From assembly GCA_046757165.1 (NCBI GenBank), contig JBHHXT010000053.1, forward strand, positions 1-26,405: 26,405 nt of DNA, in the 5' to 3' direction. The first letter of the stretch is position 1, and each line of letters begins with the position of its first letter. This DNA comes from a bacterium. GTDB lineage: Bacteria > Zhuqueibacterota > Zhuqueibacteria > Oceanimicrobiales > Oceanimicrobiaceae. The position numbers are program-made. Below are positions 6,001-12,000 of this stretch, one piece after another.

Positions 6001-9000
6001 GGGGGCATGGCTCCTTGCACCCAGGTCATTTTGCATTTTTCTTTTTGATTTTTCCATTCTGGTTCAAATACCCAAATGTTAGACCCGATCCAGTTGATCG
6101 AGAAATACTACGATTGCAAATCCACCGTGTACCAAATCCTGCTGGTGCACAGCGAGATGGTTACCCAGAAGGCGCTGGCTCTGGCGGAGCGCGTGCCGCG
6201 TCTGGAGCCGGACGTAGAATTCATCCGCGAAGCCGCCATGCTGCACGACATTGGCATCTTTCTGACCCGGGCGCCGGAAATCGACTGCCATGGCGACCAG
6301 CCGTACATCATGCACGGCCCCCTGGGCAGGGAGCTGCTGGAGCGCGAGGGCCTGCCACGCCACGCGCTGGTCTGCGACCGGCACACGGGCGTGGGAATCA
6401 GCAAGGAGGACATCCTCCGCCAGGACCTGCCGCTGCCCCGGCGTGACATGCTGCCGGTGACGCTGGAGGAGAAAATCGTCTGCTTTGCGGATACCTTCTA
6501 CGGCAAGAATCCGCAAAAACTGCGCAAGGAGAGGCCAATCGAGAAGATAGAACAAAGGGTCACGCAATACGGCGGGGACAATCCGAAGAGACTGCAACAC
6601 TTTCTCGACCTTTTTGGAGTGTAAAGCCATCCTGAAATGGTGCCACCAGAATTCTGTTTACTCGATGACTGCGGAGCCGGAGGTCCACGTTTCCCCTTTG
6701 ACTTTTCACATTTCACAAAAATCTCGCACCTGATTGACACCGCCATCACCCCATCAACACACGAGGTCCAATCATGCCGATCAAAGTCGCCATCCTGACG
6801 ATTTCCACGCGCGGGAGCGAGGGCAAACGCAAACAAGACAAAAGCGGAGACACCATTAAAAACATCATCCGCAAAATCGACGGCCAGGTCGCCGATTACA
6901 AGGTCATCCGCGATGATCAGGAACAGATCATGTGGGAATTGAAACGGTTGGCTGAAGTGGTCAAAGTCGACCTCGTGCTCACGACCGGGGGCACCGGACT
7001 TTCCCCGACGGATGTCACGCCGGAGGCGACCCTGGCTGTCATCGAGCGGCGCGTGCCCGGGCTCGAGGAGGCGATGCGCATGAGCGGCTTCCGCAAAACG
7101 CCGCATGCGCTGCTTTCGCGCGCGGTCGCAGGCACTTTGGAGAGAACATTGATCATCAACTTACCCGGCACTCCCAAAGGGGTGCAGGAGAATCTGGAAA
7201 CGATTCTGGAGACGATTCCGCATGCGGTCGAAGTGCTGCGCGGCGGCTTCATTGCAGACAAACAACACCAGTACAACCAACCAAACCCGGAACAAGAAAA
7301 TAAGATCTAAAGGCGGAGTTCGCCAGGTTTACGCAAAGAGCGCCAATATCTCCCTTTGAAGGGAGACAGGTTTTCGCTCGTCCGGAGCGAAAAGCAGAGG
7401 GGTGTCTGCTACACACAAGAACAAATTATTGTTGACTTTTAGAGTTTTTTGTTTTAGATTTGATGCGTTGTTCCGTGTAATTCCTCGTAATAGGGTCGAG
7501 GGAGTCTCCACCAACAAACCGTAAATTTGTTGTTACCGCGGAACCCAGGCTCGTAGACAAACCACCAGGGTGGAGACTCCAAATGATAATAATGACCACT
7601 CCCCCGAAATGGGACTTTCCTTATCATTGGATGTTCTTATTCAGTCAATGTCAATCTTAATCAATCACACAGCGGACCACCCACAAGTACGGTGGTGTAC
7701 CAAAATAGGTCTGATTGCCTTAACAACACTTTGTTCTTGACAATCTTGTCTCAGTTTAGTAGATTCCGGTTGAGGAAAAAGAGGGGGGAAGGGACTCCTG
7801 CCTAGAATAATTCGTTCGCCAGACACCACAAGAAGACCTTTAGAATACGAAATCATAGTATTTGGTTGAATTCCCGTACCTATTAATAATGTAAGGAGGT
7901 GATTTAGAAAATCTGTTGAGCCATATTTTGTTGTTGATTACTGTATGAGGGTAGTGCAAAAAAAGGAGGACTATTCATGTCTAAGAAATCACTGTTTGCG
8001 GTATCATTGTGCCTGTTGGTACCAGCACTTGTGTTTGCGCAAGGTAGAACCACAGCCTCGTTAAACGGCATGGTGACGACCAAGTCGGGTGAACCGCTTG
8101 TTGGCGCAAACGTTGTCGCGGTACACGAACCTTCGGGTTCGACTTTTGGCGCAGCCACACGCTCCGATGGGCGTTTTAACATCTCTGGTGTTCGTGTTGG
8201 CGGACCTTATACTGTCACCGCCAGTTTCATCGGTTATCGAACCGCCAAGCAAGAGAACGTCAACCTGGCTTTAGCCCAGGATTTGAGAATCACTTTCAGT
8301 ATGGTCGAAGAAGCGCTCGAGCTGTCTGAGATCGTCACGGTGGCAGAAAGAGATGCGATTCTCACGGCCTCGAATACGGGAACGGCGACCCATGTCACCA
8401 CGGCTCAGATCGAACGTCTGCCAACCATTACGCGCACTATATCCGATTTTACACGGCTTACCCCGCAAGTATCCGGATCGGGCGGCAGCGGTGCCACCAG
8501 TGTCGCAGGCAAGAATAATCGGATGAACAATTTTCAGGTGGACGGCGCCGTGCTCAACGATGCGTTTGGGCTCAATGCCGACGGTTTACCCACAGGAGCC
8601 GCCCGCGCCCAGCCTATCAGTCTCGACGCCATCGCCGAGTTCAACGTGGAAATCGCCCCGTTTGACGTCCGTTCCGGTAGCTTTGCTGGCGGCCTGATCA
8701 ACGCCATTACCCGCAGTGGGACCAATCACTTTGAAGGCTCCGGTTACTTCTTCGGCCAGAACGACTCCTTTGTCGGAGAGCTCGATGACAACGAATTTGG
8801 CAATTTCGATGACTTCCAGGGCGGTTTTCGGTTTGGCGGCCCCCTGGTCAAAGACAAAGTCTTTTTCTTTGTCAATGGAGAGGTTAGACGCCGAGATTTT
8901 CCCATCGAAGCCGGTCTTCTCGGTTCCGGAAAAGCAAATGAATTTCCGATCTCAGATGCTGAGATGCAACAGATCATTCAGATTGCCAATGACGTTTATG

Positions 9001-12000
9001 GCTATAATCCAGGCGGCTTCGCTCCGTTTACAAACGAAACCAACGACCAGAAAATCTTCGCAAGGCTGGATGTTAATCTCTCACAAAATCACCGGCTCAC
9101 CATCCGGCACAGTTTTGTGGACGCCGAGCGCGATGACGGTATCGACCGCAACGCCCGCGAATATACGCTCGAGAGTAATCAGTTCAAGCGAGATAACCAA
9201 ACGAACTCAACGGTTCTGCAACTAAACAGCACGATTGGCAACAACATGGCCAACGAATTCAGGCTCGCGTACACAACGATTCGCGACAAGAGAACACCGC
9301 TGTTTGCCGCCGCGCCGGAATTCGAGTTGAATCTGGAAAGAGCGGGGGATGGAATTGGTGAAATAAGGTTTGGGGTAGAGCGTTTTTCCCAGGCCAATGC
9401 CCTGGATCAAAACACATTTGAATTCACGAACAATTTGCACTATTTCACGGGCGACCATACCATCACGGTCGGTACCCATAACGAATTCATCTCTTTTGAC
9501 AACCTCTTTATCCAGGATGCGTTTGGCGCCTACGAATTTGACGTCGAATTGGATGATCTCGCCAGCGGCGCGGATGACTTCTCCCAGAACCGCCCGTCGC
9601 GTTTTTTTCTGAGTCAATCTCGCGTTCCGGGCGTTGATAAACCGCGTGCAGACTGGAGTTATATCCAACTGGGTTTCTACGCTCAGGATGAATGGAAAGC
9701 GTCGCCCGAGTTGAACCTGACCTTTGGGCTGCGAGCCGATATTCCATTGATGCCGGATGACCCGCTCGACAACTCTCAATTCACGTCTGAGTTTGGCCGC
9801 AAAACTTCGGATGTCCCCAGTGGCAATATTCTTTGGTCGCCGCGCTTTGGGTTCAATTACGATTTATCCGAAGACCGCACAACTCAAATTCGAGGTGGTG
9901 CCGGGATGTTTGCGGGCCTGCCACCGGCTGTCTGGCTGTCAAACCAGTATAGCAACACCGGCGTCGACTTTGCCCGTGTTTTTCTGTCCGGCTCTTCCAT
10001 TGAGGGTATCCAGGCCTCGGCTGATCCAAACAACCAACCCAACGTTACAGGCGACATCCCGACTTCCGATATCGCGCTGACGGACGAGGACTTCAAGATG
10101 CCGCAGGTTTTGCGCGCCAACCTGGCCATCGATCATCAACTTCCCAACGGCCTGGTGGGCACGCTGGAATTCCTGTACTCGAAGAATATCAACGACGTTT
10201 TCTTCAGAAACCTCAACATGGGCGATCCCAACAATCCGGGTGCACGAATTGGAACCACGCCAGATGGCCGTTCGGATTACGGCAGCTCGCGCTTGAGCAA
10301 TAACTTCAACAGCGTTATCTTACTGGATAACACCACTGAAGGCCGTCAATTCTTTGTTACAGCGCGTATCAAAAAGCAGCTCAATCGTGGCCCGCTCAGA
10401 GGTCTGTTCGGCAGCCTGGCTTACACATTCAGCGATGCTACCGACATCAATAGTGGCCGCTCGAGCCGTGCTATTTCAAACTGGCGCTTCAACGAGACAA
10501 GTGACCCCAATGGTGAAAAAGCCGAGACCTCCGATTTTGAAGTCAAGCACCGTCTCGTCGGGGATCTCTCCTATAATCTCCAATACGGGCGTGGCTTCGG
10601 CACGACCTTCTCAGTCTTCTATGAAGGACGCTCCGGAAATGGCTTTAGCTATATGTATGATGGCAATGTCAATGGTGATGTGTTTACCTTTGACAACGAT
10701 CTTGCTTTTGTACCGGCCAGCCGAAGCGACGTTTCATCGCAGGTTTCAGACGAAGAGTGGCAAGAAATTGAAACCTTTATCAATTCAAGCTCTGCTCTGA
10801 AAGACGCACGCGGCAAAATATTTCCACGTAACTCCGCACGTGCGCCATGGCAAAACCGAATGGACCTGCGTATTGCCCAGCAAATTCCGAGTGTCCGGGG
10901 ACAGCGTTTCGAAATCACCCTTGACGTCATCAATTTTCTCAGTCTCATCAATGATGATTGGGGGAGAATTGAGTTTGTTCGATTCGATGCGCAAAACTTC
11001 CTCAACTTCCGCGGCTTCGACGATCAAAACAAACCCATCGTCGATTTGGATGTCCGCGACCGTAATAATGATAATATCGTGACGGAAGACGACGTGTTCC
11101 AGACGGCGGATTTCTCTTCCCGCTGGCAATTCCAGTTGGGCGTGCGTTATTCGTTCTAACCCATTCGCCCTGAAGGAGCGGATGTTTTCTTTAGCACAAT
11201 AGTCTGTAACTCAAGGCCGATGCTCACGTCAGCATCGGCCTTTTTTTTGAACTTGGTGTTCGACCCGACAACGTGAACCAGCAACGAAAGCGTTTCTTAT
11301 GAAGACAAACAAGCGATGTGTCGTGGCATTCCTGCTTATGGTAGCGAGTTCCCTGCCTGCCAAAGACCTCGGCCTCATTCACTCCTACCTCATCCTGGGC
11401 GGCACGCAAGGCAACCAGATCGAACAGTTCAACGAACCCGATGCGGTCGCTTTCATGCGTGACGGCCGCTTGCTTGCGGGTGATACCGTCAACGGCCGGT
11501 TCAAGATGTACACCTTCTCCGAAACCACGCTCTCGATTGTCGCGGTGGGGAGTCCGGGCGGCGGCGATTGCCAGTTCGACAACAGTCTGGAGGTTGTGCT
11601 GGAGAGCGGCCGAGAAATCTACAACGAGGTTCAGGGGATCAGTTGCAATTCCAAAGACGAGATCTTTGTCGTCGACCAGGGCAATCGCAGGATTCTGGTG
11701 TTTGATGCCACGGGCACCTGCTTGCCCGAACGCACCATCGCACTCGAACCGATCCTGATCAAACCAGACCCGGAAAACGGCACAACCTACACCAGTATCC
11801 AAGGCCTGACCGTGGACGGCGAGGACAACCTTTACTTGACCGATACCGGCACGCGCACAGTTTACAAATTTCTCCCGGACGGCACCCTGGACCCCGAATT
11901 CGAGTTCCAGGCCAGACAGGGAACCGAATACATTCTCGACGATCCAGAATCCATGGTCATCCATCAGGACTGGCTGTACGTCGCCGATGAGGGACACCAT

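Follow-up and report, generated by a model that had tools for sequence, protein, structure and literature searches.

An aptamer of the 2'-dG-II riboswitch class stands ahead of an outer-membrane transporter gene in a 26,405-nt stretch of DNA from a KSB1-type bacterium (hereafter the window). The class is rare, and its ligand, 2'-deoxyguanosine (2'-dG), is released when DNA is broken down. Does the aptamer control the transporter, and what would such a transporter import? The genes and the aptamer in question are arranged as follows.

6774..7310, + strand: mog/moaB-type molybdopterin-binding gene (PF00994), typically found next to the transporter orthologue on its upstream side (context)
7470..7544, + strand: 2'-dG-II aptamer, defined by Rfam match, core nucleotides and aptamer alignment
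7977..11159, + strand: Oar-type TonB-dependent transporter g01900 (1060 aa; PF25183 barrel and carboxypeptidase-regulatory domain)
11299..12339, + strand: secreted NHL beta-propeller g01901, probably co-transcribed with g01900

Identity and distribution of the aptamer

The aptamer matches Rfam family RF03165 over the full length of the model (positions 1-71) with 61.4 bits and an E value of 8.4e-15, the gathering cut-off being 60 bits. This is the sole gathering-level Rfam match within the window and the single copy in its genome (G000); the match, score and strand agree with those of a preliminary description of this DNA. Numbered after the env1 structure (PMC6847200), the core nucleotides lie at these positions.

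Core nucleotides, + strand: G21 at 7477, U22 at 7478, C51 at 7509, U75 at 7533, A77 at 7535, C78 at 7536, C79 at 7537

All five class-defining core features are present. The first-shell positions U22, C51 and C74/78 are occupied by 7478 U, 7509 C and 7536 C, and the two-nucleotide J3/1 insertion, with its invariant U75 followed by A77, reads U, U, A at 7533-7535. Helices P1-P3 and the L2-L3 G-C pairs are in place, and the junction-proximal pair of helix P1, G21-C79 (7477-7537), is G-C in 16 of 16 aligned aptamers. The second pair of this helix, U20.G80, is a wobble in the window and U-A in the other 15. Across the alignment of 16, 88% of cells are paired and 14 of the 24 pairs show double changes. 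The window aptamer is a genuine member of the 2'-dG-II class, and its sequence makes binding of 2'-dG highly probable; the dG/rG selectivity of class members varies from 2.6- to 180-fold.

The class had been described as known only from unassignable reads, which would have made this its first host lineage and regulon. Neither statement is supported: a 2022 paper assigns the class to Bacteroidetes, where it stands ahead of genes for endonuclease I and phospholipase D. Our scan found 10 Balneolaceae loci, with endonuclease I as the next gene in every one (10/10), and further loci elsewhere with an EEP nuclease (one locus) or two PLD-like genes (one locus) downstream. Other aptamer variants escape the fixed-spacing search pattern. 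Chance pattern matches that failed our own aptamer model were dropped (4 of 19 loci from genomes, 12 of 26 from metagenomes), and a scan of viral sequences gave no matches. A literature search, with most subscription journals outside its scope, returned no paper linking the class to Gracilimonas and, among the matches listed, no mention of KSB1. We did not find a KSB1-type host or a transporter link of the class in print; certain hosts or transporter genes may be named in the 2017 class paper already.

Closer to the window, 4 of the 21 family genomes bear the aptamer, the relatives' copies scoring 57.8, 54.6, 53.5 and 50.3 bits (below the cut-off), and RF03165 exceeds its cut-off in 0 of 14 control genomes; these scores and this control result reproduce earlier figures. 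Our own aptamer model gave matches in 4 of the 125 genomes of the taxonomic class.

Gene neighbourhoods and the likely cargo

The relatives' copies precede either the orthologous transporter or a secreted protein, X, as the preliminary description had it. One relative from a second genus (G011) carries two copies, the second of which precedes a 72% identical g01900 orthologue, with both a promoter (P1, below) and the aptamer ahead of the gene. The other three copies precede the X gene (713-715 aa): in G002, G010 and G011, the aptamer heads an operon of X, a four-OB-fold protein, a TonB-dependent transporter (TBDT) and PorV, ending at EEP nucleases. The window aptamer is almost equally close to the two G011 copies (64 and 63 of 75 positions identical), either of which may be its orthologue. 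The G011 copy before the transporter orthologue departs from the class consensus with U51 and C75; the G002 copy, too, has U51. The structure prediction for X is poor (pLDDT 47), its N-domain is similar to non-catalytic beta-supersandwich domains, and in the structure atlas it falls into unnamed clusters only. The Oar transporter family lies at most about 21 kb from the X gene in 11 of the 29 class genomes that have both, and in one Bacteroidota genome an Oar-family transporter adjoins the whole X operon.

The aptamer is directly upstream in only 2 of 12 orthologue loci, and in the window it is separated from g01900 by 432 nt. In G001, G008, G009, G012 and G026, mog is directly upstream of the orthologue without an aptamer; an NHL gene also follows the transporter in G011 and G004. 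Loci of close Bacteroidota homologues have a nuclease, nucleotide-phosphodiesterase or OB-fold gene at most three genes away in 13 of 20 cases (PF01663, DUF5689 with EEP, or X/OB), and none among the neighbours scanned in 7 of 20. Nuclease genes do not flank g01900 among the 17 window proteins scanned, but they do occur beside relatives' loci and elsewhere in G000. No match to g01900 at E 1e-60 was found in five aptamer-bearing genomes outside KSB1, and no solved full-length structural relative was found. The literature search, again with most subscription journals outside its scope, yielded no paper in which Oar transporters are linked to either nucleases or nucleotides.

The evidence supports a role in DNA scavenging for the genes surrounding the aptamer. 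Judging by gene neighbours, g01900 would rather likely import DNA-derived oligonucleotides or nucleotides. Free deoxynucleosides are less likely than oligonucleotides, because of these homologue neighbours and because an analogous TBDT locus (ddb) of Bacteroides thetaiotaomicron is required for DNA and not for nucleosides (PMC12478041).

Promoters, leader and competing explanations

Between mog and the transporter, we predict two promoters and several candidate leader elements.

7432..7460, + strand: predicted promoter P1 (sigma-70 type, TTGACT-17-TAGATT), with a predicted start at about 7467
7569..7580, + strand: anti-aptamer strand, perfectly complementary over 12 bp to 7501-7512 in the ligand core (J2/3)
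7569..7575, + strand: Shine-Dalgarno-like site inside the anti-aptamer strand
7583..7660, + strand: putative leader ORF of 25 codons (predicted; peptide not conserved)
7628..7687, + strand: C-rich, weakly structured stretch (C16/G9), a possible Rho loading site
7737..7765, + strand: predicted transporter-proximal promoter P2 (TTGACA-17-TAGATT), downstream of the aptamer
7893..7903, + strand: conserved Shine-Dalgarno-like motif, not consistently followed by a start codon

The -35 hexamer of promoter P1 stands with a 17-nt spacer ahead of all six KSB1-type aptamers examined. Promoter P2 is kept in 10 of the 11 orthologous loci whose upstream DNA is present, is conserved also where the aptamer is missing, and alone serves five orthologues directly behind mog. 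Direct control of the transporter by the aptamer is weakened because this conserved second promoter lies between them. We still think it fairly likely that the P1 transcript reaches and affects g01900. The motif at 7893-7903 shares a GGAGG core with most orthologous leaders (10 of 11 have one).

The 12-bp anti-aptamer helix and the ligand pocket cannot form together, and the helix sequesters the ribosome site of the leader ORF. Its length was equalled in 1 of 500 shuffles, it forms in the computed free fold, and it carries one G-C to A-U double change in G011a, the copy heading the X operon, whose expression platform the window's resembles. A long helix of this kind occurs in only 2 of 6 KSB1-type copies, and G010 and G002 have no leader ORF above our ribosome-site threshold. 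Adopting the aptamer fold over the anti-aptamer fold costs 3.4-3.9 kcal/mol at three transcript lengths; with 130 nt of downstream sequence the two come out equal, and another weak hairpin can take up the ribosome site. The region downstream is weakly folded, 198 of 200 shuffles being more stable (the stretch 7628-7687 was picked after inspection), a scan of the + strand found no intrinsic terminator, and a Rho gene is present in the genome. A ligand-bound hairpin masking the Rho site was tested and rejected (accessibility 0.54 versus 0.53).

The best explanation, with a probability of roughly 0.5, is that a functional 2'-dG-II switch on promoter P1 raises expression of g01900 and the NHL gene when 2'-dG signals DNA degradation, P2 providing basal transporter expression independent of the riboswitch. 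The ligand would report DNA breakdown and the output of the P1 transcript would rise, an ON direction that we infer. Least certain is the mechanism: when ligand is missing, the leader ORF would stay untranslated and Rho would stop transcription within the C-rich stretch; when ligand is bound, the ORF would be translated, translation would shield the C-rich leader from Rho, and read-through from P1 would add to the basal P2 output. The aptamer probably increases DNA scavenging. The preliminary description had proposed a switch that turns on outer-membrane import of deoxynucleosides or DNA products: the identity of the aptamer and the DNA-scavenging context stand, whereas direct control is weakened by P2 and free deoxynucleosides are the less likely cargo.

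It is unlikely, though the strongest of the alternatives, that the switch is orphaned, the aptamer and promoter P1 having once headed an X/OB/TBDT/PorV DNA-capture operon that has since been lost, with little or no effect now. The G000 assembly contains no X or OB orthologue (best X match 25%), as expected of a deletion relic, its core (C51, U75), anti-aptamer strand and P1 flank match G011a, and P2 suffices for the orthologues behind mog. However, the aptamer, promoter P1 and the 12-bp helix show no decay, promoter and aptamer have been retained independently ahead of the orthologue in G011, and absence of the operon is uncertain because the assembly is in 531 contigs.

We consider it improbable that g01900 is a TonB-dependent importer of free deoxynucleosides governed mainly by the riboswitch. 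Its ligand is itself a nucleoside, the aptamer shares the strand of g01900 and the genome has nucleoside catabolism genes; however, P2 bypasses the switch, the enzymes encoded beside homologues act on polymers or nucleotides, and the ddb locus is needed for DNA, not nucleosides. Least probable, by a little, is a functional switch of other logic, in which ligand turns the P1 transcript off through a downstream pausing or terminating hairpin formed by the freed strand, or P1 interferes with P2: in G000, G011a and G011b, aptamer-locked folds do pair that strand with a pyrimidine-rich one downstream, and tandem promoters permit transcriptional interference, but 198 of 200 shuffles fold more strongly than the hairpin, which lacks a U tract, the + strand terminator scan was negative, and OFF control would fit scavenging genes poorly.

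Significance and relation to known systems

The structure of the 2'-dG-II class is solved and its biology is thin. An inducing switch on promoter P1, as we favour, would add outer-membrane transport to a regulon of secreted nucleases. By its ligand the riboswitch also labels Oar-type TonB-dependent transporters, a large and uncharacterised family, and gives them a testable substrate. Cultured hosts of the riboswitch (Gracilimonas) exist and can be used for in-cell tests. For a purine-family aptamer, a platform working by leader ORF and Rho would be uncommon.

With the 2'-dG-II class (RF03165; env1, PMC6847200), the window aptamer shares the three-way junction, the loop-loop pairs, the U22/C51/C78 pocket, G21-C79, the two-nucleotide J3/1 insertion starting with U and an association with DNA-processing genes. 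It differs in its KSB1-type host, in an 8-bp-style helix P2 with a U.U closing pair, and in the U20.G80 wobble. Its 432-nt gap holds a second promoter, whereas the gap in Balneolaceae is about 30-45 nt, and the next gene encodes a transporter, not a nuclease.

The ddbABCDEF locus of B. thetaiotaomicron (PMC12478041, where the word riboswitch is absent from the main text) provides a parallel in its TBDT with secreted nucleases and a putative DNA-binding partner, following PUL-like logic. In contrast, g01900 is Oar-type and gave no BLAST match at E 0.01 to five TBDT-like ORFs before stand-alone DUF5689 genes (stand-ins for DdbC by position). G000 (99.98% complete) has no match to PF18942 (DUF5689, DdbD), the transporter's neighbour is an NHL propeller, and secreted nucleases are absent from the window locus (17 window proteins scanned).

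A further parallel comes from enzymes encoded downstream in the window.

14094..16973, + strand: genes for an acylating acetaldehyde dehydrogenase-like enzyme and a PduL-type phosphotransacylase, both core enzymes of microcompartments (context)

These enzymes could process acetaldehyde from deoxyribose. SPU/HO-type microcompartments (PMC8217296), for which catabolism of DNA-degradation products is proposed, share with G000 DeoC, a shell-vertex gene, an acylating aldehyde dehydrogenase and PTAC. Contig C39 holds a cluster of shell-vertex, deoC and thymidine phosphorylase genes, deoC lying beside a CcmL/EutN-like gene, and two BMC-H genes are on C29. Unlike in SPU/HO-type systems, the G000 genes are scattered on three contigs, and any link to the riboswitch is by proximity only. 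A wider reading, less likely than not, is a feed-forward DNA-eating regulon in an uncultured phylum: Oar-type transporters like g01900 would represent a second, non-DdbC importer family for DNA-derived oligonucleotides across KSB1 and Bacteroidota, and in this lineage the 2'-dG-II switch, acting by leader ORF and Rho from the upstream one of two tandem promoters, would induce an importer that feeds a deoxyribose-catabolising microcompartment.

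A single-copy aptamer and the hosts of its class

The 2'-dG-II riboswitch aptamer (RF03165, 61.4 bits) is the sole Rfam match at gathering level in the window and occurs once in the genome; none of 14 control genomes scored above cut-off. The next gene, g01900, encodes an Oar-type TonB-dependent transporter (TBDT) and starts 432 nt past the aptamer, followed by an NHL propeller gene.

Features of the locus and genome
7432–7460: sigma-70-like site P1, before the aptamer
7470–7544 (+): 2'-dG-II aptamer
7737–7765: sigma-70-like site P2, after the aptamer
7977–11159 (+): transporter gene g01900
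11299–12339 (+): NHL propeller gene g01901
14094–16973: acetaldehyde dehydrogenase-like gene and PduL gene, about 3 kb downstream of the transporter
Contig C29, 29823–30405: further dispersed microcompartment genes of this genome

The isolated aptamer RNA is predicted to fold as a purine three-way junction. It has U22, C51, C78, G21-C79 and the U75-N76 insertion, and the U20.G80 wobble is its sole departure from the definition in PMC6847200. In an alignment of 16 aptamers, 88% of cells are paired and double changes occur in 14 of 24 pairs, counts that are inflated by kinship. The window aptamer adds one more member to a riboswitch class that is already known.

According to excerpts of PMC5473149, all 12 class members were metagenomic. 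A 2022 paper puts the class in Bacteroidetes, ahead of endonuclease I and phospholipase D genes. The preliminary description had claimed the first host lineage and regulon. This claim is unsupported, because aptamers in both genomes and metagenomes precede nuclease genes in other hosts. When we scanned species-representative genomes with our pattern, we obtained 19 loci, 15 of them judged aptamers. Ten are labelled Balneolaceae, including Gracilimonas tropica DSM 19535, and each of the ten is followed by an endonuclease I that has a T9SS tail. An EEP-family nuclease follows the one labelled Gemmatimonadetes, and the remaining four are KSB1-type relatives. Among metagenomes, 14 of 26 pattern matches fit our own model. 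Endonuclease I follows 11 of these aptamers, many near-identical, and two PLD-like genes follow another (L112:1326–3935). Scored with the same model, the 2'-dG-II aptamers L112 and L105 (57 and 46 bits, respectively) are more diverged. At the level of listings, our literature search returned no paper on a KSB1 host of the class or on a transporter target.

U51 occurs in G002 and in the second copy of G011 (G011b); this change cost env1, the member of solved structure, 18-fold (excerpts of PMC6847200). The aptamers of L020, L014, L104 and L110 have U51 (two also C75) and keep G21-C79 and the J3/1 insertion, and such variants appear in KSB1-type and Balneolaceae-type contexts alike. Judged from these sequences, ligand drift within the class is possible.

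Possible control of the transporter gene

Of the 21 family genomes, 4 carry the aptamer; in the class, 4 of 125 do. In G002, G010 and the first copy of G011 (G011a), the aptamer heads an operon of X (a secreted 713–715-aa protein), an LTD protein, a lipoprotein, a TBDT, PorV and an NHL lipoprotein, ending at convergent EEP nucleases. For the LTD protein, ExeM-type matches are weak; its structure model (pLDDT 71) contains four OB folds like those of RPA, SSB, MCM and anticodon-binding domains, with a best Z of 11.7, a likeness that is no proof of DNA binding. No X or OB orthologue was found in the window genome's assembly. G011b precedes the g01900 orthologue, and its downstream genes match those of the window.

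Control of g01900 by the riboswitch is, in our estimate, slightly better than an even bet, and the main rival is an orphaned switch. The promoter case rests on conservation, because the scan expects 1.3 sites by chance. The -35 of P1 was found ahead of all six KSB1-type aptamers, and P2 in 10 of the 11 orthologous loci that have upstream DNA. An aptamer lies directly upstream in only 2 of 12 orthologues (the window genome and G011; the upstream DNA of G004 is cut off), and five sit directly after the molybdopterin-binding gene mog without one. P2 is conserved without the aptamer, so all that the riboswitch can do is reinforce or modulate a basal promoter.

For riboswitch control, the leader offers a candidate platform. 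Positions 7569–7580 are complementary to the ligand core over 12 bp without a mismatch, a length reached in 1 of 500 shuffles. In G011a the match spans 10 bp (2 of 500) and includes one compensatory change; in this test, nothing above chance was seen in the other four copies. The anti-aptamer strand carries a ribosome site, buried in the predicted free fold, 7 nt ahead of a putative 25-codon ORF whose peptide is not conserved. The aptamer fold costs 3.4–3.9 kcal/mol with 45–90 nt downstream and 0.2 with 130 nt. The terminator scan found no intrinsic terminator on the + strand, Rho is encoded in the genome, and 198 of 200 shuffles are more structured than the downstream leader. Five of six copies contain a 60-nt window in which C exceeds G by at least 7. 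Of 1112 background leaders, 9% do, or 39% when the best window is taken; our own 60-nt window was picked after inspection. These data fit leader-ORF-coupled Rho attenuation with ON logic, in which we infer the steps that would follow the helix.

Two further elements were seen between mog and g01900. A Whalefall-1-like double hairpin at 7346–7406 (28.4 bits, cut-off 37), with copies 90–92% identical on contigs C285 and C104, is probably a small repeat or a terminator after mog. Of 11 orthologous leaders, 10 keep a perfect Shine-Dalgarno-like motif (7893–7903 in the window) about 60–95 nt ahead of the start, with no consistent start codon behind it; its 10-mer has 46 genome copies, several without a start codon.

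Gene neighbours and known systems for DNA use

Orthologues of g01900, at 63–78%, occur in 11 other genomes. Oar and X homologues are both present in 29 class genomes and lie within about 21 kb in 11 (G002 counted via a gene split over two contigs), a floor because the assemblies are fragmented. In G008 (L128:7522–10612), the transporter orthologue is split into two ORFs, with an X homologue directly downstream. Of 121 sampled Bacteroidota genomes, 48 have an Oar homologue. We examined neighbours at 20 of the 23 best loci, omitting three near contig ends, and scanned 51 of 79 ORFs within two genes of the homologue plus five further. At six loci a type I phosphodiesterase/nucleotide pyrophosphatase lies no more than two genes away, and at another six a DUF5689-plus-EEP secreted nuclease lies no more than three away; one further locus has the complete X operon including its EEP gene. 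Such neighbours total 13 of 20 loci, several of them close kin, with one transporter family counted; for scale, the window genome has about 13 such genes in 6.1 Mb, by our estimate about 3% of 14-kb windows. The unpublished genomes G116 and G120 enter tallies only, and no claim is built on them.

Elsewhere in the window, a GHKL ATPase gene (20004–21638, -) weakly matches the BbrUII/HgiDII restriction enzyme family (104 bits, cut-off 550) and is a possible defence gene by sequence. An ABC transporter (22041–26020, -) has a PhnS-like binding protein below cut-off.

The closest studied system to g01900 is ddbABCDEF, as described in excerpts of PMC12478041. BLAST found no similarity between g01900 and five DdbC-like proteins, and the genome has no DUF5689 match. 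We regard g01900 as a transporter that probably works in the ddb manner. The locus context plausibly extends the class regulon to DNA uptake. Contig C39 (L218:5993–8456) carries a shell-vertex gene, deoC and thymidine phosphorylase; in G004, G009 and G011, too, the PduL gene is no more than about 10 kb away from the transporter. The dispersed genes of the window genome resemble the microcompartments proposed, in excerpts of PMC8217296, to catabolise DNA products.
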